Numbered from the stretch's first letter, positions 10,127-57,375 are shown. The stretch: 57,375 nucleotides of DNA from Burkholderiales bacterium (GCA_049698095.1 JBAVXA010000210.1:1-57375); one strand, 5' to 3'. Notes: generated by a model from the letters alone, not told the origin. Numbers and translations: made by a program.

Positions 10127-10696
10127 ATGATTGACCGGGACGGATACCGCCCCAACGTCGGCATTGTGCTATGCAATGCCCGAAATGAAGTATTTTGGGG
10201 CAAGCGCATCAAAGAGCATTCGTGGCAATTTCCGCAAGGCGGCATCAACCACGGCGAATCACCTGAACAGGCGATGTATCGCGAGTTGGAAGAAGAAACC
10301 GGCTTGTTGCCGCACCATGTGCAAATCCTCGGGCGTACCCGCTCCTGGCTGCATTACGACGTGCCCGCCCACTGGGTGCGGCGCGAGTGGCGCGGCAGCT
10401 ATCGCGGGCAAAAACAGATATGGTATTTACTCCGCCTGGTTGGCCGCGACTCGGACGTGAAATTGCGCGCCAGCCCGCACCCCGAATTCGACGCCTGGCG
10501 CTGGCATGAATACTGGATTCCCATGGAGAGCGTCATCGAGTTCAAGCGCGATGTATACAAGCAGGCGTTGAACGAATTGTTTGTTTATCTGCGTGGACAA
10601 AATCATCGGAACAAGCGCACGCATCTGGGCATCCGCGCCGAGCCGAAAGATACGGCTAAGCCGGACATCATCCTCCCGGAAGCATCGTCTTCATAA
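10127..10696 (+). CDS. rppH: RNA pyrophosphohydrolase (Nudix)
   Basis: N-terminus [14 protein letters not shown] and Nudix box [23 protein letters not shown]. Confidence 0.9.
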
Positions 10697-27866: not shown

Positions 27867-28742
27867 TCACCCTGCGCGTTTTTTCCTGTCCATGAATTGA
27901 AGAATCATCGGCGTGAAAATGAGCTGCATGGCCAATTCCATTTTACCGCCAGGTACCACCAGAATATTCGGCCGCGACATAAAGGAATCGTGGATCATGG
28001 AAATCAAATACGGGAAATCGATTCCCTTCGGATTGGCGAAACGAATGACGACAAAGCTTTCGTCCGCCGTCGGGATGTAGCGCGCGGAAAACGGATTCGA
28101 GGTGTCGACTGTCGGCACGCGCTGGAAGTTGATATGCGTGCGGGAAAATTGCGGCGTGATGTAATGGATGTAGTCGGGCATGCGGCGCAGGATGGTATCG
28201 GTCACCGCCTCGGTCGAATAGCCCCTGTCGCCCTTGTCGCGCAACAACTTTTGTATCCATTCCAGATTGATAATCGGCACCACGCCCACGAGCAGATCGG
28301 CGTGCTGGCCAACATCGACCTGCTCGGTTTTCACAGCGCCGTGCAGGCCCTCGTAAAACAGCAGGTCGGTTTTTTCAGGCAAGTCTTCCCAAGGCGTGAA
28401 TGTTCCCGGCTCCTGGCTGTACGGCGCGGCCTCCGCGGCATTGTGCAGATATTTGCGCACTTTGCCGCGGCCGGTTTCACCGTATTCGCGGAACAATGAC
28501 GCCAGCTCGGTAAACAGGTTGGCTTCCGGGCCGAAGTGGCTGAACTTGTCATTGCCCATCTTGAGTTCTTCCGCCATTTTTATTTTCATTTCCTGGCGGT
28601 TGTAGCTGTGGAATGAATCGCCTTCAACAATCCCAGCGTTTATTTTTTCCCGCCGGAAAATATGCTGGAATGTCTTGGTCACGGACGAAGTCCCTGCTCC
28701 TGACGAGCCGGTGATGGCGATGACTGGGTGTCTGACGGACAT
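27867..28742 (-). CDS. cbbP: Phosphoribulokinase
   Basis: 291 aa with P-loop ITGSSGAGTSSV. Bacterial PRK body. Last gene of the cbb operon. Confidence 0.92.
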   Translation of the reverse strand: MSVRHPVIAITGSSGAGTSSVTKTFQHIFRREKINAGIVEGDSFHSYNRQEMKIKMAEELKMGNDKFSHFGPEANLFTELASLFREYGETGRGKVRKYLHNAAEAAPYSQEPGTFTPWEDLPEKTDLLFYEGLHGAVKTEQVDVGQHADLLVGVVPIINLEWIQKLLRDKGDRGYSTEAVTDTILRRMPDYIHYITPQFSRTHINFQRVPTVDTSNPFSARYIPTADESFVVIRFANPKGIDFPYLISMIHDSFMSRPNILVVPGGKMELAMQLIFTPMILQFMDRKKRAG

Positions 28743-28752
28743 TTTTATTCCT

Positions 28753-28776
28753 GTTATAAGTATTTGAATATATTAA
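28753..28776 (-). repeat. AT-rich junction repeat, copy I
   Basis: ttaatataTTCAAatacTTAtaac (minus strand); matches copy K at 21 of 24 positions. Fills the fbp/prk junction. Confidence 0.75.
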
Positions 28777-28781
28777 ATTAA

Positions 28782-29858
28782 TTAATGCGTCATAAACAGC
28801 GAGCGGGTGTTGAATAAGGGCGAAGTGAATTCTTCGTCGCTGCCGTCATCGTGTTCGCGATGGTAACGCACAATGCGCTCGACTTCATTGCGCGAACCGA
28901 GAATGAGCGGCACGCGCTCATGAATCGCAGTCGGTTTCAATTCCATGATGCGCTGATGACCGGTCGATGCGGCGCCGCCGGCTTGCTCGACCAGCATCGC
29001 CATCGGGTTTGCTTCGTACATCAGGCGCAGGCGTCCGGCCCTGCTCGGATCCTTGGTGTCCTTGGGATACATGAATACGCCGCCGCGGATCAGGATACGA
29101 TGGACTTCAGCCACCAGCGAGGCAATCCAGCGCATGTTGAAATCAGCGCCGCGCGGCCCGCTCTTGCCGGCGAAGCATTCATGCACATAACGTTTCACCG
29201 GCACTTCCCAAAAACGTTCATTCGAGGCGTTGATCGCGAATTCGCGCGTCTCGGCCGGGATCTGCAACTGCGGGTGCGTCAACATGAATTCGCCCAACTC
29301 GCGGTCCAGCGTGAAACCGCACACGCCGGTTCCAACAGTCAACACCAGCATGGTCGACGGACCGTATATCGCGTATCCGGCCAGCACCTGTTCGGTGCCC
29401 GGCCGTAAAAAATCTTCGGCCGTCGGGCGGGTCAATCCGGACGGCGCGCGCAACACGGAAAAAATGCTGCCGACGGAAAGATTGACGTCGGTATTCGACG
29501 ACCCGTCAAGCGGGTCGAACAGCAGCAGATAGCGGCCGCGCGGATATTCATCGGGAATCTGATACGGCTCATCCAGTTCCTCCGACACCATGCCGGCTAA
29601 ATGGCCACCCCATTCGCAATGGCGCACGAACGCTTCGTTGGCCAGCACATCAAGTTTTTTTTGCGTTTCGCCTTGCACGTTTTCCACACCGGCGGTGCCG
29701 AGCACGCCGGCCAGCGCGCCCTTCGCAGCTGCCTGCGAGATGGCCTTGCACGAACGCACGATGTCGCTGACCAGCAGGCCGAAGTCGCTGCCGAGCGCGG
29801 GGTTGCCGCGCAGCTGCTCGGTGATGAATTTATTGACGTTAGTACGGCCTTGCTGCAT
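28782..29858 (-). CDS. cbbF: Fructose-1,6-/sedoheptulose-1,7-bisphosphatase, class 1
   Basis: Contains FDPLDGSSN and GVFMYP-type FBPase class 1 motifs. Located in the cbb operon. Confidence 0.92.
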
Positions 29859-29879
29859 GACGCTCTCCCGCTGAATAGT

Positions 29880-30800
29880 CTATTTCGCCTGCTGGGCGAA
29901 AACCCGGCTGTTGCGGATGTCTTCCGCTTCCAGCGTCATCAGCGCTTCCTTGCCGACATTTTTTCCCATGCTGCTGAACAGGCGATTCGCCGCACGCAGC
30001 CGCGCGCGGTCCAGTGCGTTGCGCATCGATCGCGCATTGGCGAAGTGCGGCTGTTGCATGCGCAACACGATATATTCGCGCAAGGCGGCGGTTGCCTCGG
30101 CGCTGAGCTTGAAATGCATTTTGTCCAGCATCAGGTCGGCAATCTGCAATAACTCGTCCGCGCTGTAATCGGGAAAATCGATATGGTGCGCAATACGCGA
30201 CGACATGCCCGGATTGCTTTTGAAAAACGTGTCCATGCGGTCTTTGTAGCCGGCGACGATGACGACCAGATCATCTCGCTGGTTTTCCATCACTTGCAAC
30301 AGGATTTCTATCGCTTCCTGGCCGTAGTCGCGTTCATTTTCTGGACGATATAAATAGTACGCCTCGTCGATGAACAACACGCCGCCCATCGCTTTTTTAA
30401 GGATTTCCTTGGTCTTGGGCGCGGTGTGGCCGATGTATTGGCCGACCAGATCGTCACGCGTGACCGCGACCAGATGGCCTTTGCGCACATAGCCGAGGCG
30501 ATGCAGAATTTCCGCCATGCGCATCGCGACGGTGGTCTTGCCGGTGCCCGGGTTGCCGGTAAAGCTCATGTGCAATGACGGCGCGCCGGAGGCGAGGCCG
30601 AATTGTTCGCGCGCTTTTTCCATCAGCAAAAACGCGGCGATCTCGCGAATTCGCGTTTTCACCGGCGCCAAACCGATCAGCTCGCGGTCGAGTTCATTGA
30701 GCAATGGTTCGATGCCGGTCTGCTGATAGAGGTCGGCCAGATTCACTGACGTTGCTTTATCAGCGCCTGGATCCAACGTCTTTATCTCGGCAGAGGACAT
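29880..30800 (-). CDS. cbbX: CbbX, AAA+ red-type RuBisCO activase
   Basis: 306 aa with Walker [10 protein letters not shown] and Walker B LFIDEAY. Lies directly after cbbS. Confidence 0.92.
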
Positions 30801-30809
30801 TAAAATGTT

Positions 30810-30833
30810 CCAATATAAACAATATGTTAGTAA
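30810..30833 (+). repeat. AT-rich junction repeat, copy J
   Basis: ccaatataAACAAtatgTTAgtaa. Lies at the cbbS/cbbX junction and overlaps the cbbS stop codon. Confidence 0.6.
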
Positions 30834-31243
30834 CGGCTACCGGAAGGCTTGTCGGTAGCGTAGCTGTGAATGGTGTAGCGAATGTTTCTGCCGTTCACTT
30901 CCTGCCGCGTCACGCCAAAACCCGGCTCCTGTTTCGGACGATGCACGATGAACGACATGCGCATGGTCTCAAATCCGTGCACCGCGTCGAAGGCATTTAC
31001 TTTAATGTAATGGTTGGGGAAAGTCTCGCGGCATTCATTGACTTCCAGCATCGCGCCCGCCGCGTCTTTCAAATCGAACATCGGCAATCCCCACATTTCC
31101 CAGTAGGTGTTGCGCGGGTGCGGATCGTCCGTGTATTCGACCGAGACGGCCCAGCTTTGTTTCAATGCGTAATCGATCTGTGCCTGGATTTCCTTGTCGG
31201 TCAGTTCGGGTAAGAACGAGAATGTTCCCTGGGTTATGCGCAT
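30827..31243 (-). CDS. cbbS: RuBisCO small subunit (red-type)
   Basis: [19 protein letters not shown]..., 138 aa with the long C-terminal extension typical of form IC/ID. Confidence 0.95.
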
Positions 31244-31255
31244 ACGATTCCTTTC

Positions 31256-32816
<1,561 letters not shown>

Positions 32817-32826
32817 GCAATCCCTG

Positions 32827-33810
32827 ATGAATAACCTCGATCTTGTCCGCCACCTGACATTGCGCCAGCTGCAGATATTCGAAGTCGCCGCGCGCAACCT
32901 GAGTTTTGCGCGAGCCGCGGAGCAACTGCACCTGACGCAGCCTGCGGTCTCGATGCAAATCAAATTACTCGAAGATGCGGTCGGCACGGCGCTGTTTGAA
33001 CGCGTCGGCAAAAAGGTTCAGCTTACCGAGGCAGGCGACAAATTACTCCATCACGCGTCGCGCATTCTGGGTGAACTGAAGGATGCCGCGGCGGTATTCG
33101 AGTCGCTCACCGGTTTACAGTCGGGCACGCTGCATATTGGTCTCGTGAGCACGGCAAAATATTTCGCGCCGAAAATGCTGGCGAAATTCTCCGCGCAATT
33201 TCCACATCTGGATGTGAAGCTGGAAGTCGGCAACCGCGAGTTCCTGCTCAAACTGTTACAGGACAATGTCATCGATCTCGCCATCATGGGCCGGCCGGCG
33301 AAGGGGCTTGATGCCGTGGCAGAGCCGCTGGCGCAACATCCGCACGTCATTATCGCCAAAGTCGACCACCCGTTCCGCAACGAGAAAAGGTTTGATTTGC
33401 AGGAATTGCGCGGAGAGACTTTTTTGCTGCGCGAGCCCGGTTCCGGTACGCGCGTGGTCGCGGAAGAGATGTTCAAAAATCATTTGTTCAAGCCGAAAAA
33501 AATCGTCACCCTGGGCAGCAACGAAACCATCAAGCAGGCGGTCATGGCAGGAATGGGCGTGTCGCTGCTATCGTTGCACACGCTGGGCCTGGAATTGCGC
33601 AGCGACGTGATTGCCATTCTCGACGTGCTCGGTACGCCGGTCTCGCGCACCTGGCACGTCGTCAATATGCGTACTAAGAGTCTCTCGCCGCCGGTGTTGG
33701 CGTACCGGGCATTCATGCTGGACAATGCTGCGGAGTTTCTTGAACAGGAGTTCGGCCGTTATGTGGCTGAAAAGAAAATTCCGGCGAAAAAACTCCGGAA
33801 GAAGCCGTGA
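32827..33810 (+). CDS. cbbR: LysR-family regulator of the cbb operon
   Basis: Divergent from cbbL. HTH LRQLQIFEVAARNLSFARAAEQLHLTQPAVSMQIKLLE. Confidence 0.9.
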   Translation: MNNLDLVRHLTLRQLQIFEVAARNLSFARAAEQLHLTQPAVSMQIKLLEDAVGTALFERVGKKVQLTEAGDKLLHHASRILGELKDAAAVFESLTGLQSGTLHIGLVSTAKYFAPKMLAKFSAQFPHLDVKLEVGNREFLLKLLQDNVIDLAIMGRPAKGLDAVAEPLAQHPHVIIAKVDHPFRNEKRFDLQELRGETFLLREPGSGTRVVAEEMFKNHLFKPKKIVTLGSNETIKQAVMAGMGVSLLSLHTLGLELRSDVIAILDVLGTPVSRTWHVVNMRTKSLSPPVLAYRAFMLDNAAEFLEQEFGRYVAEKKIPAKKLRKKP

Positions 33811-33939
33811 CCAAGCCGGCAACTGTCGCGACATCTGGCGCGAACAGAAAACTTCGACATTAAAAGTAACTGCTGTTTTGGGATAAATTTTCTGTGCGCA
33901 GCGTCGTTGCGCAGCAGTATTGGCTGGAGCGTAGTGGCA

Positions 33940-34362
33940 TTAAGCAAAAAACTCCAAATTGACGCCGACCTGTTTAGCGTCCGGCACGATACCGGTTTTG
34001 GCAATGCTAATTTTTACCCACGGCGCGTGGAATTCGTTAATGATCATGCGACCGAGATGCTGGCCTAATCGTTCCAGCAGAAAAAACTGCCTGATCACCA
34101 GCTCTTCGCGGATGCGTGCCACCACCAGCGCGTAATCCGCCGTGTCGCTGATATCGTCGCTGAAACACGCTGCCGTGTCGCGCATGCCGATTTCCAGCTC
34201 AAACTGCAGGGTTTGCGGCGCGAGGCGCTCGTAGTCGTAAACACCGATAATCGTCGGCAACTTGAGCTCGCGAATAAACACGCTGTTGTTGGTGTCGCGG
34301 TTTTGCGGCGGCAGGGCAACCGGAAATTCCGGCTTGAACTGGGTAGGCTTATCGGAAAACAT
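33940..34362 (-). CDS. folB: Dihydroneopterin aldolase family protein
   Basis: 140 aa. IGVYDYERLAPQTLQFELEI and the tunnelling-fold pattern resemble FolB. Carries an N-terminal extension of about 25 aa. Confidence 0.65.
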   Translation of the reverse strand: MFSDKPTQFKPEFPVALPPQNRDTNNSVFIRELKLPTIIGVYDYERLAPQTLQFELEIGMRDTAACFSDDISDTADYALVVARIREELVIRQFFLLERLGQHLGRMIINEFHAPWVKISIAKTGIVPDAKQVGVNLEFFA

Positions 34363-34405
34363 AATGGTCCTTCATTGTTTCGGGTGACTTTTGCGAATTG
34401 TAAGC

Positions 34406-35347
34406 TTATTTCGAAAACTCATGGGACTCAATTTCCAGATATAAATTAAAGACATTCCTGCGATGCAACACATCATATAATGCCCATTTCGAATAAGCGG
34501 GCAGATTCGCCAGCTTTGTCGCCTCGCCGAGGCTCACGCCGTCGCGATAAAATTTTTCCGTTTGCGCTTTAAGCGCGCGCAGGTAGGCGGACACTTCTGC
34601 CATGCGCGCGGGCTTCGACACCGGTCCGTGCCCGGGAACGATTTGCTTCAGCGGCAATTTTCCTGCCGACTCGATTGCGCTAAGCCAGCCATCGATTTTC
34701 GCTTCGCGGGTTTCCGGCAGGCGGTCAAAGCTGAAAAGATCGCCGCTGAACAAAACGCCGCTGGCGCGGTCATAAACAAGTAGCGCGCCGGGCGCTTGGC
34801 TGTGGCCGAAATACAGAATGTCCAACTCGCGGCCAGATATTTTTACCTGGATCGAACGATCCAGGATCAGCGTCGGACGGTTGACCCTGGTGCCTTGCAT
34901 AATGTCTTCGCCGATATTTTTTTTCAGGTTGGCAAGGCAGGCGGCGCAGTGTTCCAGCATAGATTTATCGGCATCGCGATGACTGACAATGGCGATATTG
35001 CGCCGCTTGAATGCGCCGTTGCCAAGCACATGGTCCTGTCCGGTAAAGGTTGTGATGACCAGCACCACCGGTTTGTCGCTGACTTTTGCGATGGCGCGCA
35101 ACATGTACTCGCCGTATTCGTCGCTGCTGCCGGTGTCGATGACGATAATACCGTTGTCGCCGACGATGAATCCCTGGTTCGCCACCGCGCCGCGGTTTTG
35201 CGCACTGGCTTCTTCGGTTGCGCCGATAAACGCATAAACATTCGGCGCAACTTTGCACGGCGCAGGGAAATCAGCCCACGCGACGGGCGCGAAAATCAGC
35301 CACAATAAAAACGACAGGGAGAGTTTCCGGCAAAAAGAATGGTTCAT
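34406..35347 (-). CDS. Exported metallo-beta-lactamase-fold protein, SoxH-like, with a degenerate metal motif
   Basis: Signal peptide ends AWA. Paralogue of the 53572..54519 product (shared GFIVGD, VIDTG, PGHG, RRNV blocks), but HxHxDH is replaced by TFTGQDH. Confidence 0.8.
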   Translation of the reverse strand: MNHSFCRKLSLSFLLWLIFAPVAWADFPAPCKVAPNVYAFIGATEEASAQNRGAVANQGFIVGDNGIIVIDTGSSDEYGEYMLRAIAKVSDKPVVLVITTFTGQDHVLGNGAFKRRNIAIVSHRDADKSMLEHCAACLANLKKNIGEDIMQGTRVNRPTLILDRSIQVKISGRELDILYFGHSQAPGALLVYDRASGVLFSGDLFSFDRLPETREAKIDGWLSAIESAGKLPLKQIVPGHGPVSKPARMAEVSAYLRALKAQTEKFYRDGVSLGEATKLANLPAYSKWALYDVLHRRNVFNLYLEIESHEFSK

Positions 35348-50846: not shown

Positions 50847-51380
50847 CTATTTTCCGTTCTGAGATTTTGCATCCACCCAGATAAATCCCTTCGCATTCGG
50901 CATCATCACCTTCGGTAAGGCCTGCGCGTTCATTTCCTGTTTCTCGTTGATCACATTATTCAATTGCAATAAGTAAGCAGTGAGGGCGTAAGTTTCGTCG
51001 TTCGTGAGCGAGCCGGGCGCGGTCATCGGCATGCCGCGGCGGATGAAGTCGAACAGTGTCGTCGCGTAGGGCCAATAGGTGCCGATGGTTTTGTCGGGTG
51101 AGGCGCTGGTGAGGGCGTGGGTGCCGTTGGCGAGTTCGGTGGCCGATGCGCCGATGCCTTTTTCGCCGTGGCAGGACGCGCAGTGTTTTTCGAACAGGGG
51201 TTTGCCTTGCTGCGCGTTGCCGCGACCGGTGGGCAGGCCGCGGCCGTCGGGGTAGATGCTGAGATTAGTGCTTTTTATTTCTGCTTCGGTAGTGGGTTTA
51301 CCGAGGCGTGGGGAGTTGTCGGCAGCAAAAGCGGTTTGAGTAGCCAGCAGTAACAAAAAGAATAGTTTCGTATTAAGCAT
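50847..51380 (-). CDS. Monohaem cytochrome c subunit (SorB / SoxD-like partner)
   Basis: Signal peptide MLNTKLFFLLLLATQTAFA and a single CASCH haem site. The ATG overlaps the upstream stop by 8 nt. Confidence 0.8.
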   Translation of the reverse strand: MLNTKLFFLLLLATQTAFAADNSPRLGKPTTEAEIKSTNLSIYPDGRGLPTGRGNAQQGKPLFEKHCASCHGEKGIGASATELANGTHALTSASPDKTIGTYWPYATTLFDFIRRGMPMTAPGSLTNDETYALTAYLLQLNNVINEKQEMNAQALPKVMMPNAKGFIWVDAKSQNGK

Positions 51381-52650
51381 ACACATGTGCAACCGAACCA
51401 TCGTCATCGATTTCCCACGCCACGATGCCGTTGTAATGAAAATAGCCGTGGCGTCCGCGCTCTTGAATTAACGCTTCCCGCTCGGGCTGCACGTAGCCGG
51501 ATTCGTCGGTGGCGCGACTTTTCAGGATGGCGGCTTTGCCGTCCCAGTTCCAGCCCATGCGAAAGCGGGTGAAGCATTGCGGCAGCACCGGTCCTTGCAT
51601 CGCGGCTTCTCCCCAGCTTTTGCCGCCGTCTGCGGAGACTTCGACTTTGCTGATTTTGCCTCGGCCAGACCAGGCGAGTCCGCTGATTTGGTAAAACCCC
51701 GGTGCGCGCAATTTGTAACCCAGCGACGGCGACGTGATCAGCGATTTCGCTTCCATCACAAACGTGAACTGCCGTGCTTTTCCGGAAGGCAATAGTTCGG
51801 TGTATTGCGACGTTTCGTTGCGCGACATGATGGGTTGGTCGCTGAGCTCGAAGCGGCGCAGCCATTTCACATTCAATACGCCTTCCCAGCCGGGAACGAT
51901 CAAACGCAATGGAAAACCGTTCTCCGGCCGCAGGCGCTCGCCGTTCTGGTAAAGCGCGATGATCGCATCCTGCATGAGTTTTTCCAGCGGTAGACTCATG
52001 TTGTGAGCGATGGCGTCTGCGCCTTCGGCGATGACCCACGAGGCTTTCCCATCGACGCCGGCTTCATTCAACAGCACGGAAACCGGCACCCCGGTCCATT
52101 CGTTGCACGAAGCGAGGCCATGCAGATTTCCGGCGGAAGTTTGCAGCGGCTCCTGATGCCAGCCGGAAAAACTGTTGCCGCCGCATTCGAGAAAAATCAG
52201 CTTCGAGGTCATTGGATAGCGCAACAAATTGTCCACGCTGAAAGTCAGCGGTTGCTTCACCAAACCATGAATCAAAAGTTTGTGTTGGGCCGCGTCGATT
52301 TCCGGCACGCCGTTGTGGTGGCGCTCGAAATGCAAACCGGTCGGCGTGATGACGCCTTCGAGTTCGTCCAATGGCGTCCACGAGGAACCGTTACCCGCAA
52401 CGACGCGATTCGCGGTAATGCGACGAATGGTTTTAACTTGTTTGGATGGTTGCCCGTAATTGGAAAACGGCAGGCCTGGCTTTTGCATCCACGGCGGCGT
52501 GGTGAGATTTTCTGCGGCGATTGCGGGAACCGCCATGGTCGCGCCGGTTGCAGCCACTTGCTTAAAAAATACGCGGCGATGTAACAGGCCGTTGTCGGCG
52601 ACAATTTCGAGATCGGATGCAGCGGGCAGATTTTTTTTGTTTTGGCGCAT
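51373..52650 (-). CDS. Molybdopterin sulfite-oxidase-family dehydrogenase (SorA/SoxC type), Tat-exported
   Basis: Twin-arginine signal HRRVFFKQVAATGATMAVPAIAA, Mo-ligand Cys in FLECGGNS, and a C-terminal dimerisation domain. Confidence 0.85.
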   Translation of the reverse strand: MRQNKKNLPAASDLEIVADNGLLHRRVFFKQVAATGATMAVPAIAAENLTTPPWMQKPGLPFSNYGQPSKQVKTIRRITANRVVAGNGSSWTPLDELEGVITPTGLHFERHHNGVPEIDAAQHKLLIHGLVKQPLTFSVDNLLRYPMTSKLIFLECGGNSFSGWHQEPLQTSAGNLHGLASCNEWTGVPVSVLLNEAGVDGKASWVIAEGADAIAHNMSLPLEKLMQDAIIALYQNGERLRPENGFPLRLIVPGWEGVLNVKWLRRFELSDQPIMSRNETSQYTELLPSGKARQFTFVMEAKSLITSPSLGYKLRAPGFYQISGLAWSGRGKISKVEVSADGGKSWGEAAMQGPVLPQCFTRFRMGWNWDGKAAILKSRATDESGYVQPEREALIQERGRHGYFHYNGIVAWEIDDDGSVAHVYA

Positions 52651-52671
52651 CTTGCCTGCTGGCGTGATTAT

Positions 52672-52695
52672 TATATAACTATTTGATTATATTAA
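52672..52695 (-). repeat. AT-rich junction repeat, copy M
   Basis: ttaatataATCAAatagTTAtata (minus strand); exact IHF-type core. Fills the SoxYZ-like/SorA junction. Confidence 0.8.
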
Positions 52696-52703
52696 GTATT
52701 TCA

Positions 52704-53534
52704 TTACGATTTGCCTGCCACTACTTCGAGTGCGCCATTAAATTTTTTGTCGGCCGTATCTTCCACTTCTGCTTTCAACACGCCCTTTTCCTTCGGCACA
52801 AAGTAGAAACGGAAGTTCGGGTTTTCGCTGATGGAAAAATCGACATCGGCGGTGAGTACCGGTTTATCGGCATACGTCACGTTGATGCGGCGGACGTAAT
52901 AAGCGGGCACGAACAGGCGCGTGACCTGATCCATCGCCAGGCCCGAATTGTTCGGATGGTTGACCATGAGCTGCACCAGATTCGGCTGGTTATATTTCAC
53001 GTCGTTTTCCAGCCGCATCTTGATTTTGCCCACCTTGGACATCGCTTCGGCCTGGTCCTTGCCGGCCGGCGCGGAGCATCCGCCGGATGCCTTGATATAA
53101 CGAGCCACGCTGTAAAGTTTGCCGTCGTTCATTTCTGCGATGGCGCGAATGTAGGAATACTCTTCCACGCGAATCCGCGTTTCCAGATCAGCACGACCGC
53201 TGTCCGGCGTCATGGTAAACACGGCTGCGATCGGCGACGGGTTTTTGTCCACGATGAGATAGACTTTTTTCACGTATTCATTCGGGTTTTGCTGCAGCTG
53301 GGCCTTGATTGATATTGGCACGGTCGCCGCATCTTCCGCGCGCACCGGCGCGTCAAGCTGAATGACTTTGTCGGCTTTCTCGCTGATCGGCCGGCTCTCG
53401 AACAGGCTTTTGCGCACCTTTCCCCACATTTCCGTATTCGGATCGGGGTCGGCGTCGGCAGCGTAAACTGTCGTTGCGCCCAGCGTCAGGGCAATCACGC
53501 ACAGCAACGGCTTGAGAAACTTGAGTGAGTTCAT
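52704..53534 (-). CDS. Fused SoxY-SoxZ-like carrier protein
   Basis: Signal peptide MNSLKFLKPLLCVIALTLGATTVYA. Internal carrier-Cys motif KASGGCSAP between a SoxY-like and a SoxZ-like half. Resembles the family described as quinoprotein-dehydrogenase-associated SoxYZ-like carrier (from memory of TIGRFAM descriptions). Confidence 0.75.
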   Translation of the reverse strand: MNSLKFLKPLLCVIALTLGATTVYAADADPDPNTEMWGKVRKSLFESRPISEKADKVIQLDAPVRAEDAATVPISIKAQLQQNPNEYVKKVYLIVDKNPSPIAAVFTMTPDSGRADLETRIRVEEYSYIRAIAEMNDGKLYSVARYIKASGGCSAPAGKDQAEAMSKVGKIKMRLENDVKYNQPNLVQLMVNHPNNSGLAMDQVTRLFVPAYYVRRINVTYADKPVLTADVDFSISENPNFRFYFVPKEKGVLKAEVEDTADKKFNGALEVVAGKS

Positions 53535-53571
53535 GGCACTTACCCCTGAATAGGCATTCACTGAAAAAATT

Positions 53572-54519
53572 CTACTCTTCCCACTCCAGTTGCGCAAACG
53601 CAGTGGTGACGTTGCGCTTGTGAAAAGTATCAAACAATAGCCAGTTATCGCGCTCGCCGATTCCCACTGTTTCAACTGCCTGCTGGATGGTTTTCCTGTT
53701 TCGCAGCATTAGTCGGGTTTCGGCGAGTAAACTTTCCAGATAGCGCTGCTGGTTGTCTGCCGCCGCAGGCCAGTTTTTTTGCACGGCGCCGTGGCCGGGA
53801 ATCACCGTCGTCGCTTTGATGCCGCGAAGCTCGTTCATCACCACCAGCCAGCCGGTCAGATTTCCGTCGAGCACCGGCGTATGGCCAATGAATAACAGGT
53901 CTGACAGCCACAAGGTTCCGCTGGTTTCATCAAACACGGTTACATCATTGTCCGTGTGCGCCGTGCGCCACGCGCGCAAAGCCAGTTTGCGTCCGCCGAG
54001 ATCGAGTTCGAGCGTGTCGGTTAACGTTTGCGTCGGCGCAACGATGACGCTGCCATCTGCTGCCTCGCCCAATACACGCTTGATTGCATTGAGATAATTC
54101 TGCGCGCGCGTTGCCATGGCGAGCGGCAGTTTTGCATGGCCGATAAACGCGGGCCTGTCGGCATTGAAAGCAGCGTTGCCAAAAATATGATCCGGATGCA
54201 CGTGGGTATTAATGACATAACAAACCGGCAGCGGCGTCACGCGCGAAATTGCCGCACGGAGTTTTTTGCCGACGACGAGACTGCCGCCGCTGTCGACCAC
54301 GGCGACGCACTTGCTGCCGACAATAAAGCCGATGTTGGCGATGTCGCCCTGGTTCGCGGCAGCACTCTCCTGCACCACCGCCTGATGCACAAACACGCCC
54401 TTCGCCACTTCGCTCAACGGCCATTGGTCGTCCTCGATAGTCGCCCGGACATGCGTCGGTGGCAACGCTGCGCAAGCGGCGAGAAGACCGACTAAAAATA
54501 AATATTTAAATATAATCAT
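53572..54519 (-). CDS. Exported SoxH-like metallo-beta-lactamase-fold zinc hydrolase
   Basis: Intact INTHVHPDH motif plus PGHG. The signal-peptide codons MIIFKYLFLVG are supplied by a repeat copy. Confidence 0.85.
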   Translation of the reverse strand: MIIFKYLFLVGLLAACAALPPTHVRATIEDDQWPLSEVAKGVFVHQAVVQESAAANQGDIANIGFIVGSKCVAVVDSGGSLVVGKKLRAAISRVTPLPVCYVINTHVHPDHIFGNAAFNADRPAFIGHAKLPLAMATRAQNYLNAIKRVLGEAADGSVIVAPTQTLTDTLELDLGGRKLALRAWRTAHTDNDVTVFDETSGTLWLSDLLFIGHTPVLDGNLTGWLVVMNELRGIKATTVIPGHGAVQKNWPAAADNQQRYLESLLAETRLMLRNRKTIQQAVETVGIGERDNWLLFDTFHKRNVTTAFAQLEWEE

Positions 54520-54530: not shown

Positions 54531-54739
54531 TGGCGCGCGATCTGACAATGGAACGACATTACGTGTGCGTGAGATTGTATGGTAATGCTTTTCGTTGCAT
54601 TGGTAAGCGCAAATAAATCGTTACACCAACTTGCGCGCGTGGATATATGCGTGGTGCAATGGCTAGCTGCTGGCATAGACATTGCGATAATTCGACAAAC
54701 ACCTCATCGGAGCGAAAAGTGACTGACCATAGCGACGCA

Positions 54740-55744
54740 ATGCTGCAGGATTGGCGCACCCGCGCGCTGAACCTGGAAAATCAGGTGAACAAAATCGTGA
54801 TCGGCCAGGAGCGCGTGGTGCGCCTGCTCAACACCGCGCTGTTCGCGCGCGGCCATGTCTTGCTCGAGGGCGATGTCGGTGTCGGCAAGACCACATTATT
54901 GCGTGCGTATTCGCGCGCCATCGGCGGTGCCTATTCGCGCATAGAGGGCACGATAGATTTGATGCCGAATGACCTGATTTATTACACCTTCATCAGCGCA
55001 GACGGCAAGCCGCGCGTCGATCCCGGGCCGCTGCTCATGCACGGCGAAAATCTCAGCACGTTTTTTTTCAACGAGATCAACCGCGCGCGGCCGCAGGTAC
55101 ATTCGCTGCTGCTGCGCGTGATGGCCGAGCGTAGCGTGACGGCGTTTAACCGCGAATATCATTTTCCGCACCTGTTGGTTTTTGCCGACCGTAATCGCGT
55201 GGAAAAAGAAGAGACATTCGAAATCTCGTCCGCCGCACGCGACCGGTTCATGATGGAGATTTTTATCGACACGCCCGCCGATGCGGCGATTCAGCAGGCG
55301 CTGATGTTCGATCCGATTTACCACGATTCGGACGCGCTGGTGAATCGCATCACGCCGGGCCTGCTCGAATTCGAGAAGCTCGAGGACATTGGCGCGGCGA
55401 TACAACTCGGCATCGAAGCCAGCCAGACGCTTTGCGATTATGCGCTGAATTTATGGCGCGCCACGCGCGAGCCGGCGGCGTTCGGCGTAAAAATCAACGG
55501 CGCCGATGTCAGTCATCTGGTGCTCGCCGGCGCCAGCCCGCGCGGAATGAGCATGTTGTTGCGCGCGTCGCGCGTCGCCGCCTGGCTGGACGGCCGCCAT
55601 TACGTCGTGCCGGAAGACATCCAGTCGATCTTCGCGCAGGTCATCGCGCACCGCGTTTTTTTCAATCCGGTGTACGAATTGCGCCGCGCGGAAGTGTCGC
55701 GTGAATTGATCGACGGCATCATGAATAAAGTTGCGGCGCCGTAA
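54740..55744 (+). CDS. MoxR-family AAA+ ATPase
   Basis: Walker A GDVGVGKTT, Walker B-like FFFNEINRA, and a MoxR-type C-terminal lid. Start uncertain (ATG 54740; the track begins at 54647). Confidence 0.88.
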   Translation: MLQDWRTRALNLENQVNKIVIGQERVVRLLNTALFARGHVLLEGDVGVGKTTLLRAYSRAIGGAYSRIEGTIDLMPNDLIYYTFISADGKPRVDPGPLLMHGENLSTFFFNEINRARPQVHSLLLRVMAERSVTAFNREYHFPHLLVFADRNRVEKEETFEISSAARDRFMMEIFIDTPADAAIQQALMFDPIYHDSDALVNRITPGLLEFEKLEDIGAAIQLGIEASQTLCDYALNLWRATREPAAFGVKINGADVSHLVLAGASPRGMSMLLRASRVAAWLDGRHYVVPEDIQSIFAQVIAHRVFFNPVYELRRAEVSRELIDGIMNKVAAP

Positions 55745-55837: not shown

Positions 55838-56776
55838 GTGCAGACCGCATTCGCGCTGGACGCAAAGTACGTACCGGCAAGCGATGATCGGGCCGGTTAC
55901 CGCCCATGGCGGAGCGCGGCATTAGCTATGCTCGGCGAGTTCCATTACCGCATCAACGCGCGCGCGGGCGGTTATTTCCCCGGTCACCATCGCAGTGTGC
56001 AACCCGGCGGCGCGTTCGAGTTTCGCGGCCACGTGCCGCTGCTCGACCGGCCGGATGCGCGTCGACTTGATGTTCACGTCAGTCTGCGCGATCCGTTCGG
56101 CGGCTGGGTGGTGCGCGATTTCAAGCAACGCAGCAGCGTGCCGTTATATGTCATCGGCGATATTTCCGCGTCGATGGGGTTTGCCGGCCTCGCAGGGCGT
56201 AAACTCGACGTATTGGCGGACATTCTTGCCTCGGCCGCCTACTCGGCACATCGTACCGGCGACCGTTTCGGTTTTGTCGCCTGCGATACGCAAGTGCGCG
56301 AAGAGTTTTTTCAGCCGCCAAGTCATTTGCGCGGCGCTGGTGCGGCAGCGGAAAAGGCGTTGCGCGGGTTAACGCCAACCGGCAAAAAAGCCGACGGATT
56401 GCTCGACGCGCACAAATATCTGGCCCGCCAGCGCGCGCTGATTTTTCTGGTGTCGGATTTTCATTTTCCCGTTAAATTGCTCGATGACATTATGCAAACC
56501 TTGTCGCGACACCAGGTTATCCCGCTGGTGTTATGGGACGCTGCCGAATACGCAAACCTGCCTAATTACGGCTTCGCCACCTTGCGCGATAGCGAGAGCG
56601 GCAGACAACGCAGCGTGTGGATGCGTCCGAAACTGCGCGAGCGCATCCGGGCGCATTTTGCGCAACATCGCGCGGCGATGGAGCAGATCTTCATGCAACG
56701 ACAATCGCCGGCGGTTTTTCTGCAAGGCAGGTTCGAACCTGACCTACTCACGCAATATTTTTATAGTCATGCGTAA
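55838..56776 (+). CDS. DUF58 (vWA-like) protein, MoxR partner
   Basis: YVIGDISASMGF (DxSxS MIDAS-like motif) and FLVSDF. Start uncertain (GTG 55838 or ATG 55928). Confidence 0.8.
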   Translation: MQTAFALDAKYVPASDDRAGYRPWRSAALAMLGEFHYRINARAGGYFPGHHRSVQPGGAFEFRGHVPLLDRPDARRLDVHVSLRDPFGGWVVRDFKQRSSVPLYVIGDISASMGFAGLAGRKLDVLADILASAAYSAHRTGDRFGFVACDTQVREEFFQPPSHLRGAGAAAEKALRGLTPTGKKADGLLDAHKYLARQRALIFLVSDFHFPVKLLDDIMQTLSRHQVIPLVLWDAAEYANLPNYGFATLRDSESGRQRSVWMRPKLRERIRAHFAQHRAAMEQIFMQRQSPAVFLQGRFEPDLLTQYFYSHA

Positions 56777-57375
56777 CCTGGTTGCTCTGTTTTTTTGCCT
56801 GCTGACTTTGCCGCTGGCTGCCAACGCAGAGCAGAAACCGGCGGAGGCCAACACGGAAAATAACGGCGCGGCGCAGGTTAGCGTGCGCACGCTTGACCCA
56901 CGACCGTTTGGCTATGTCATTGGCGATGAATTGTCTCGGCGCATTGAAATTGATACGCCGCCGAGTTTTAAACTGTCTGCCGATTCGTTGCCGCGCCCCG
57001 GCCGGGTCGATGCCTGGCTGGAGCTGCGCAAAATAGCGGTGGCGCAAAAAGCATATGGTGCCAACGTACGGCACACGCTCGACCTGCGTTATCAGATTCT
57101 CAATTCACCGCAAGCCGTGAAAACCCATTATCTACCGAAGATATTGATTATATTAAATAATAATGATCAAATGCAACCGGTAGAGATTAACGAAACGCCA
57201 TTCACGCTTGCGCCGATCACGCCGGCGTTTGTGCTCGCCCGTGACGGTCTCGAGGAATTGCGCGCAGATAGACCCGCCCCGTTGATCGACGCGTCAGCGC
57301 ATTATTGGCGCCTCGGTTTTGCTGCATTGGCAACTGCGGCTGCGTTGTTTTCGTTGATTTATATAAAGTGGGGCA
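56769..57375 (+). CDS. Exported protein of unknown function (MxaA-like position after MoxR/DUF58); runs off the right edge
   Basis: Absent from the track because it has no stop in the window. The ATG overlaps the DUF58 stop (ATGCGTAA). My translation: MRNLVALFFCLLTLPLAANA EQKPAE...YLPKILIILNNNDQMQPVEINETPF...LFSLIYIKWG, with no stop through 57375. Confidence 0.65.
   Translation, partial: MRNLVALFFCLLTLPLAANAEQKPAEANTENNGAAQVSVRTLDPRPFGYVIGDELSRRIEIDTPPSFKLSADSLPRPGRVDAWLELRKIAVAQKAYGANVRHTLDLRYQILNSPQAVKTHYLPKILIILNNNDQMQPVEINETPFTLAPITPAFVLARDGLEELRADRPAPLIDASAHYWRLGFAALATAAALFSLIYIKWG
57133..57156 (-). repeat. AT-rich junction repeat, copy O (intragenic)
   Basis: ttaatataATCAAtatcTTCggta (minus strand). 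Lies about 120 codons inside ORF 56769..>57375 and is read as KILIILN. Confidence 0.6.

Follow-up and report, generated by a model that had tools for sequence, protein, structure and literature searches.

Toward one end of the stretch of DNA analysed here (57,375 nt from a Burkholderiales bacterium, GCA_049698095.1 JBAVXA010000210.1:1-57375, hereafter the window), four genes on the minus strand encode an exported metallo-beta-lactamase (MBL) hydrolase, a fused SoxY-SoxZ-like carrier, a SoxC-type molybdopterin enzyme and a SoxD-type cytochrome c. It was found that these genes form a real, tightly packed, co-directional operon, and that the link between the carrier and the SoxCD-type pair is real and recurrent, with carrier-SoxC-cytochrome triads present in at least seven clades, some of them stand-alone (Methylibium, Hyphomicrobium). 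In this lineage, the quinoprotein-relay accessory set takes a variant form, with a SoxCD-type pair following the carrier, and comparison with colinear relatives indicates that the operon is one arm of an XoxF-type pyrroloquinoline quinone (PQQ) alcohol/methanol dehydrogenase island. The module is most likely a periplasmic scavenger of sulfane sulfur or sulfite serving the PQQ enzyme, by a chemistry that we infer and set out below.

Organization and protein families of the operon

The operon occupies positions 54519 to 50847 on the minus strand and contains the following genes:

54519-53572 (-): exported MBL hydrolase, 315 aa; first gene of the operon
53534-52704 (-): fused SoxY-SoxZ-like carrier, 276 aa, counted from the ATG of MNSLKF
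52650-51373 (-): SoxC-type molybdopterin enzyme, 425 aa
51380-50847 (-): monohaem SoxD-type cytochrome c, 177 aa

The hydrolase and carrier genes are separated by 37 nt and the carrier and SoxC genes by 53 nt, while the ATG of the cytochrome gene overlaps the SoxC stop by 8 nt. As listed, the carrier open reading frame (ORF) has a TTG start upstream of the MNSLKF ATG. An initial annotation, made from the sequence alone, had described four same-strand genes with short gaps and this overlap, and both the coordinates and independent gene calls agree with it. The gene call for an identical public contig (L001) gave the same carrier, SoxC and cytochrome genes with the same overlap, and that for a contig with an identical carrier (L002) gave the same 315-aa hydrolase; both contigs are too short to reach beyond the window end. 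Between the four genes, a scan of the coding strand gave no terminator-like sites, and this lack hints at a single transcript. Counts in the promoter and terminator scan did not exceed the shuffle expectation, and the scan is informative solely for the lack of coding-strand terminators. An exact database look-up of the window SoxC returned no identical record.

The families proposed initially for the hydrolase, carrier and molybdenum enzyme were checked with hidden Markov models (HMMs), and all three scored above the relevant cut-off. The hydrolase matched TIGR04559 (SoxH-related, or quinoprotein relay system zinc metallohydrolase 2; hereafter hydrolase 2) at 406.1 bits against a cut-off of 280, and reached 176 bits with TIGR04558, for which the cut-off is 300. 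It is also matched by Pfam Lactamase_B, and the motif HVHPDH (residues 106-111) and an N-terminal hydrophobic signal can be read from its sequence. Export signals were found on all four operon proteins, including the expected Tat motif in SoxC, and all four products are directed to the periplasm.

The carrier passed the fused-carrier model TIGR04557 (288.4 bits, cut-off 140) and fell below the cut-offs of the true-SoxY model TIGR04488 (81.5 bits, cut-off 125) and the true-SoxZ model TIGR04490 (58.1 bits, cut-off 76). Pfam identified both SoxY and SoxZ domains, preceded by a Sec-type signal at the N-terminus. The GGC cysteine motif that had been noted inside the protein was read directly as the internal loop KASGGCSAPAGKD (53093-53055), in which Cys153 is encoded at 53078-53076; the cysteine is thus internal, at residue 153 of 276. 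The loop was invariant in all 18 homologues compared (56-87 % identity). In an AlphaFold2 model (pLDDT 82, pTM 0.78), the two domains superpose on solved SoxY (TM 0.86) and SoxZ (TM 0.83-0.88), and residues 152-158, which form the cysteine loop, have pLDDT values below 50, so that the loop is predicted to be flexible. The invariant CSAPAGKD linker may be a putative processing site that would create a canonical C-terminal arm.

For the molybdenum enzyme, the SoxC model TIGR04555 gave 572 bits (cut-off 420), whereas the SorA model NF052245 (130.6 bits, cut-off 600) and the SorT model NF052247 (130.3 bits, cut-off 570) both failed. Pfam matches were Oxidored_molyb and Mo-co_dimer. The closest structure was the solved Paracoccus SoxC 2XTS_A (355 bits, 48.8 % identity), compared with at most 93 bits for solved free-sulfite enzymes and 87 bits for SorA in the PDB. 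The protein carries the Tat motif RRVFFK at residues 25-30 and the motif ECGGNS at residues 155-160, which we take to hold the Mo-ligand cysteine; R25, R26, E155 and C156 were invariant in the SoxC alignment (A2). The cytochrome is matched by Pfam Cytochrom_C and, in keeping with its earlier description as monohaem, has a single haem site, CASCH, at residues 67-71. Its best PDB match was 2XTS_B, the haem domain of SoxD (E 4.5e-32, 40 % identity), and its similarity identifies it as a homologue of the first haem domain of SoxD. Because both the HMM and PDB scores favour SoxC over SorA and SorT, the two proteins are classed by sequence as a SoxCD-type pair and not a SorAB-type pair. The same scores rule out the SorAB reading, and of the original label 'SoxCD/SorAB-like' only the first half is retained.

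The window also lacks the remaining components of a canonical Sox system, as had been stated. No SoxAX was found in the 57 kb, the operon cytochrome being the only credible ORF with a CxxCH motif; one further CxxCH match lies in a short ORF that, from its location, was considered antisense to 10127-10696. SoxB-like proteins were absent from the seven window ORFs of at least 500 aa.

Recurrence of the carrier-SoxCD association

To define the usual context of the carrier, one genome per species was scanned with the carrier alignment and the 80 best loci were kept. Hydrolase 2 was present in 59 of these, typically just upstream of the carrier, and a second SoxH-like hydrolase lay downstream of the carrier in 53. 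An XoxF-like dehydrogenase was found in 27 of the 38 loci having 8 kb of flanking sequence on both sides. SoxC and the cytochrome adjoined the carrier in seven loci, the remaining 73 being without SoxC. These seven consisted of the window's own lineage (L009), five Methylibium-type loci and one fragmented locus (L088). In the Methylibium-type locus with full flanks (L039), hydrolase and PQQ enzyme genes were both missing within 10 kb.

Two features of the carrier loci were recorded in passing. Within L088 (6582-11204), SoxC, the cytochrome, hydrolase 2 and one carrier copy are each split over several frames and an intact carrier adjoins them; the splitting reflects either pseudogene decay or errors in the assembly. 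In L018, L020, L044, L047, L052, L062, L070, L079 and L083-L085, the second hydrolase is followed by another fused carrier paralogue, and these additional paralogues form a separate clade in the carrier tree.

Searches anchored on SoxC gave a complementary view. The closest relatives in a protein search were 65-73 % identical and came from Hyphomicrobium, Methylocaldum and Gammaproteobacteria, and a Hyphomicrobium assembly contained a carrier-SoxC-cytochrome triad with no hydrolase or PQQ enzyme within 10 kb, whereas the other relatives had orphan SoxC-cytochrome pairs. Among 80 loci from a SoxC-anchored metagenome scan, a small cytochrome homologue followed SoxC in every one of the 68 with room downstream. 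In 11 of the 80, SoxC shared its locus with a TIGR04557 fused carrier, in three gene orders; two of the 11 had the order SoxC, cytochrome, hydrolase 2, carrier, hydrolase and lay beside MoxR and DUF58 genes. No separate soxY or soxZ was found within 8 kb in any of the 80 closest SoxC loci. Seven carriers from the metagenome SoxC loci, divergent ones included, were scanned with TIGR04557, and all seven passed (217-281 bits) and kept the CSAP cysteine loop. In two SoxC-adjacent carriers (L108 7036-7896 and L120 6960-7856), KGACSAPP replaces SGGCSAPAG, the cysteine and CSAP being kept and GGC lost.

In neighbour-joining trees, carrier-adjacent SoxC proteins fell into at least seven groups interleaved with orphans, that is, with SoxC proteins from loci without a carrier nearby, and the carrier tree showed the same groupings. 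The matching groupings point to long co-inheritance. The window SoxC belongs to an 'out-of-cluster' clade to which canonical SoxC (2XTS_A) is a distant outgroup. No other conserved partner, such as a hydrolase, rhodanese or thioredoxin, was found around the triads; only SoxC, the carrier and the cytochrome recur, and the remaining genes are lineage-specific or antisense ORFs. These findings suggest to us that the fused carrier has long been functionally tied to the 'out-of-cluster' SoxCD clade. The initial suggestion that carrier and SoxCD-like pair belong together is borne out by their adjacency, which for both proteins recurs in at least seven clades, the stand-alone triads among them.

Two orphan loci were of separate interest. 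On a plasmid of Burkholderia sp. FXe9 (L176, 6911-12631), two genes for LLM-class flavin monooxygenases and one acyl-CoA dehydrogenase-like gene come after an orphan soxC-cytochrome pair, and ABC substrate-binding protein genes occur nearby on both sides. This context looks like organosulfur desulfonation genes, which would release sulfite. In Caballeronia sp. M1242, the orphan soxC-cytochrome pair and a TIGR04557-like carrier are located on different replicons (NZ_CP071131.1 and NZ_CP071130.1), so an orphan at a given locus does not imply a genome without a carrier.

The predicted adjoining PQQ dehydrogenase island and other parts of the window

The last 2.7 kb of the window hold mxaR-, mxaS- and mxaA-like genes that are divergent from the operon:

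54647..55744 (+): MoxR-type AAA ATPase (mxaR-like); Pfam AAA_3, AAA_lid_2 and bpMoxR
55838..56776 (+): DUF58 protein (mxaS-like); Pfam DUF58 at 84.8 bits; syntenic in relatives
56769..57375 (+): mxaA-like ORF, cut by the window end; homologue between DUF58 and VWA genes in L003, L005 and L007

The mxaA-like ORF had no match in Pfam or NCBIfam, and its start shares 8 nt with the end of the DUF58 gene. Genes of this kind belong to the mxa accessory set and are presumably dehydrogenase assembly factors. The MoxR gene is colinear with that of L003, L005, L007 and L009, at 82-83 % DNA identity, and the same four-gene operon with the same divergent arm was present in L003, L005, L007 and L008, in which the carriers are 81-87 % identical to that of the window. 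In blastn comparisons, colinearity with L003, L005, L007 and L008 extended to the final base of the window, 57375, which corresponds to approximately 6415 in L003.

Beyond that point, the order of the arm in the relatives can be followed as MoxR, DUF58, mxaA-like, VWA, mxaK-like, VWA, pterin-4a dehydratase, a 605-aa PQQ dehydrogenase and a small cytochrome. Of the genes expected in an mxaRSACKL-type cluster, MoxR, DUF58 and a truncated mxaA-like ORF lie within the window, and the two VWA genes are seen in the relatives. The 605-aa dehydrogenase passes TIGR03075 (736 bits) and has a vicinal CC pair and a WDFDG motif, the latter of which we take to be a lanthanide/XoxF signature. In L003 its gene is at 2687-870, equivalent to a position about 3.7-5.5 kb past the window end, and xoxF and xoxG are accordingly predicted by synteny approximately 3.7-5.5 kb beyond base 57375. 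Inside the window, no PQQ dehydrogenase was found among the seven ORFs of at least 500 aa, nor did phmmer with the relatives' 605-aa enzyme give a match. A pterin-4a-carbinolamine dehydratase gene was also seen beside, or a few kb from, the XoxF-like dehydrogenase or the carrier in L003, L005, L007, L010, L011, L027, L034, L040, L061, L064 and L073.

These comparisons change one element of the initial annotation, in which the SoxCD-like pair was the neighbour of the carrier instead of a PQQ dehydrogenase. Four colinear relatives continue into a PQQ dehydrogenase about 3.7 kb past the window, and the module is therefore predicted to accompany such an enzyme and not to replace it; a dehydrogenase cluster just outside the window had been named in that annotation as the finding that would overturn its proposal. 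Of the proposed minimal carrier-based sulfur-oxidising or detoxifying module, the carrier-SoxCD link stands and the independence from a PQQ dehydrogenase is not supported.

On the other side of the operon, the window contains one more gene of the SoxH-like group:

34406..35347 (-): third SoxH-like MBL hydrolase; TIGR04559 212 bits (cut-off 280), TIGR04558 210 bits (cut-off 300)

No hydrolase 1 (TIGR04558) was found in the window, both of its SoxH-like MBL proteins scoring below that cut-off. According to blastn synteny, the third SoxH-like gene lies 1.4-1.9 kb downstream of the cytochrome gene in relatives and about 15.5 kb away here. The intervening segment 35840-50820 (about 15 kb) is absent from the colinear loci L003, L005 and L009, the corresponding interval in L003 being about 1.3 kb. 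It encodes a DUF3280 protein, GH17-like and GH81 proteins, an ABC ATPase, a GH1 beta-glucosidase, two permeases, a solute-binding protein and a LacI regulator, and looks like a beta-glucan/sugar utilisation island whose insertion has separated the third SoxH-like gene from the cytochrome gene. In the region 27867-35347, the third SoxH-like gene and a FolB-like gene (33940-34362) are neighbours of cbbR and of a cbb operon that encodes the RuBisCO large subunit, CbbX, FBPase and PRK, in the same order as in L003 and L005.

Candidate function and comparison with known systems

In the mechanism put forward here, Cys153, on the flexible loop between the SoxY and SoxZ domains, would capture periplasmic sulfane sulfur as a persulfide, or possibly sulfite. 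The SoxCD-type enzyme would oxidise the carrier-bound sulfur to the sulfonate level and pass electrons from SoxC through the cytochrome c to the respiratory chain. The zinc hydrolase would then release sulfate and regenerate the carrier, steps that are performed by SoxB in the canonical pathway. Sulfur nucleophiles would in this way be removed without SoxAX or SoxB and with recovery of electrons, and the adjacent dehydrogenase would be shielded at both its PQQ and its vicinal-cysteine active site. This scheme, in which sulfane sulfur or sulfite is oxidised on the carrier and the zinc hydrolase takes the part of SoxB, is put forward tentatively, with a probability that we place slightly below an even chance. 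Solved SoxC of the SoxCD type acts on SoxY-bound sulfur, and the assignment of the window enzyme to the SoxCD type and not the SorA type supports a carrier-bound mechanism. Published hypotheses also tie such carriers to the shielding of PQQ from sulfur species (PMC12997753).

Several observations weigh against this mechanism. The carrier cysteine, as read from the translated gene, is internal and not on a C-terminal arm, and in the canonical system it is the C-terminal SoxY arm that enters the active-site funnel of SoxC. Stand-alone triads occur without any hydrolase and so have no obvious release step. The SoxC-cytochrome pair lacked a nearby carrier in 69 of the 80 metagenome loci, orphan pairs being the majority of the clade; they are found in Methylocaldum, Methylosinus trichosporium OB3b, Methylobacterium, Caballeronia, Burkholderia and on Paracoccus pantotrophus pPAN2. 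No column of the SoxC alignment separated carrier-adjacent from orphan proteins when a residue was required in at least 85 % of one group and at most 25 % of the other, and free sulfite consequently stays a credible substrate. Finally, the PQQ dehydrogenase of this particular genome is predicted from synteny only.

The orphan pairs lead directly to the alternative that SoxC and the cytochrome form a soluble periplasmic sulfite:cytochrome c oxidoreductase acting on free sulfite, sharing a theme with the carrier and hydrolase without using the carrier as substrate. The NCBI family name, 'sulfite dehydrogenase', the dominance of orphan pairs in the clade and their occurrence in organisms without Sox systems, the orphan pair set among flavin monooxygenase and ABC-transporter genes, and the lack of a sequence signature distinguishing carrier-adjacent from orphan SoxC are all consistent with it. 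Free-sulfite oxidation would leave unexplained why a co-directional TIGR04557 carrier lies immediately upstream in at least seven clades and is the sole common partner in stand-alone triads, and the enzyme is much nearer to SoxC 2XTS_A than to the solved free-sulfite enzymes (355 versus at most 93 bits). Canonical SoxCD alone reportedly has no sulfite dehydrogenase activity. This alternative is considered rather unlikely, although it is the strongest of the three weighed here. Under a different reading, the carrier and hydrolase would help to mature the XoxF-type dehydrogenase or to maintain its redox state, at the vicinal disulfide, the PQQ or the lanthanide site, and the SoxCD pair would be a passenger that has no mechanistic connection with them. 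Carriers of this family overwhelmingly accompany PQQ dehydrogenases and the two hydrolases, with SoxC absent (73 of 80 loci), the divergent mxaRSA-like genes belong to the mxa accessory set, and maturation or redox-control roles have been proposed in a review (PMC12997753). Stand-alone carrier-SoxC-cytochrome triads with no PQQ dehydrogenase within 8-10 kb and the matching groupings of the carrier and SoxC trees nevertheless count against a passenger role, and the 8-nt overlap and gaps of 37-53 nt speak against recent insertion. This explanation is considered improbable.

It is also conceivable, at a very low probability, that the genes are part of a normal, full Sox pathway for thiosulfate oxidation, whose soxAX and soxB would lie at other genomic sites. 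RuBisCO and the cbb operon in the window would fit an autotroph able to use sulfur. The carrier, however, fails the true-SoxY and true-SoxZ models and has its cysteine in an internal position, SoxC is in the out-of-cluster clade, far from the canonical outgroup 2XTS_A (48.8 % identity), individual soxY or soxZ genes are missing within 8 kb of SoxC in all of the 80 closest loci, and the 57 kb contain neither SoxAX nor SoxB. A broader form of the carrier-bound mechanism, held with less confidence than the mechanism itself at about one chance in three, is that TIGR04557 carriers are the natural substrate of out-of-cluster SoxCD. In that case, the self-contained triad would oxidise sulfane sulfur or sulfite without SoxAX or SoxB, would predate the PQQ islands and would have joined them secondarily.

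The carrier and SoxH-like hydrolases occur beside lanthanide/PQQ alcohol dehydrogenases in thousands of genomes, including the Pseudomonas putida ped cluster, Methylorubrum and chemosynthetic symbionts. The operonic carrier-SoxCD link names a concrete partner and a concrete candidate reaction for them, within a set of three or four soluble periplasmic proteins. If true, it would tie C1 metabolism to periplasmic detoxification of reactive sulfur and would amend a family name suggesting that these proteins occur solely with PQQ enzymes; the triad reading would moreover provide the first defined chemistry for 'quinoprotein relay' proteins. Of the comparative results, the one that most deserves following is the recurrence of the carrier-SoxC-SoxD triad, in some cases with no PQQ enzyme nearby. 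No description of the operonic carrier-SoxCD link or of its mechanism was found in the open-access full text searched, which yielded gene inventories alone. The novelty is lower than the initial annotation implied, similar gene sets having been reported in Methylophaga (PMC6548844) and Methylococcus (PMC8527097).

Among characterized systems, SorAB of Starkeya novella and SorT of Sinorhizobium meliloti share with the window pair the sulfite-oxidase fold, the periplasmic location and a small c-type cytochrome partner, but the window enzyme scores only about 130 bits against their model cut-offs of 570-600, and in the PDB 87 bits with SorA against 355 with SoxC. The canonical Sox system of Paracoccus pantotrophus (SoxXA, SoxYZ, SoxB and SoxCD; 2XTS, 2OX5, 4UWQ) is closer. 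Its SoxC is homologous, the window cytochrome resembles the first haem domain of its SoxD, the cytochrome gene directly follows soxC, all proteins are periplasmic, and the window carrier has the SoxY and SoxZ folds and a GGC cysteine. The window differs in lacking SoxAX and SoxB, with an MBL zinc hydrolase in place of the latter, in having SoxY and SoxZ fused with the cysteine on an internal loop where the canonical system has a C-terminal GGCGG arm and a separate SoxZ, and in having a monohaem SoxD of 177 aa.

The quinoprotein relay system (TIGR04557/04558/04559) is likewise similar. The window carrier and hydrolase 2 pass its models, the gene for hydrolase 2 immediately precedes that for the carrier, an arrangement shared with 59 of 80 loci, and syntenic relatives have an XoxF-type PQQ dehydrogenase island alongside. 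The slot after the carrier, usually filled by a second hydrolase, is here occupied by SoxC and the SoxD-type cytochrome. A second SoxH-like hydrolase is found no nearer than 15.5 kb and scores below both cut-offs, and the predicted dehydrogenase is outside the window. Comparable carrier and SoxH-like genes lie beside PQQ alcohol dehydrogenases in P. putida (PP_2677/PP_2678, in the ped cluster) and in M. extorquens (META1p1703-1705, near xoxFGJ), for which maturation, redox control and protection of PQQ from sulfur nucleophiles have been proposed as roles (PMC12997753). In lucinid symbionts, soxYZ fusions adjoin alcohol dehydrogenase or xoxF and soxH genes (PMC11237559).

The closest published inventories come from methylotrophs and methanotrophs and are those of Methylophaga, the genomes of which have soxCDHYZ and soxYZ fusions and no soxAB (PMC6548844), and Methylococcus, which has SoxYZ and SoxCD without SoxAXB in a role called 'not clear' (PMC8527097). 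These are the same inventory as in the window, and the closest relatives of its SoxC come from Hyphomicrobium and Methylocaldum. Those papers give inventories without an operon or a tie to xoxF, whereas the window, from an uncultured RuBisCO-carrying bacterium with closest named relatives labelled Burkholderiales, has the genes in one operon abutting the mxa-like arm of a predicted XoxF island.

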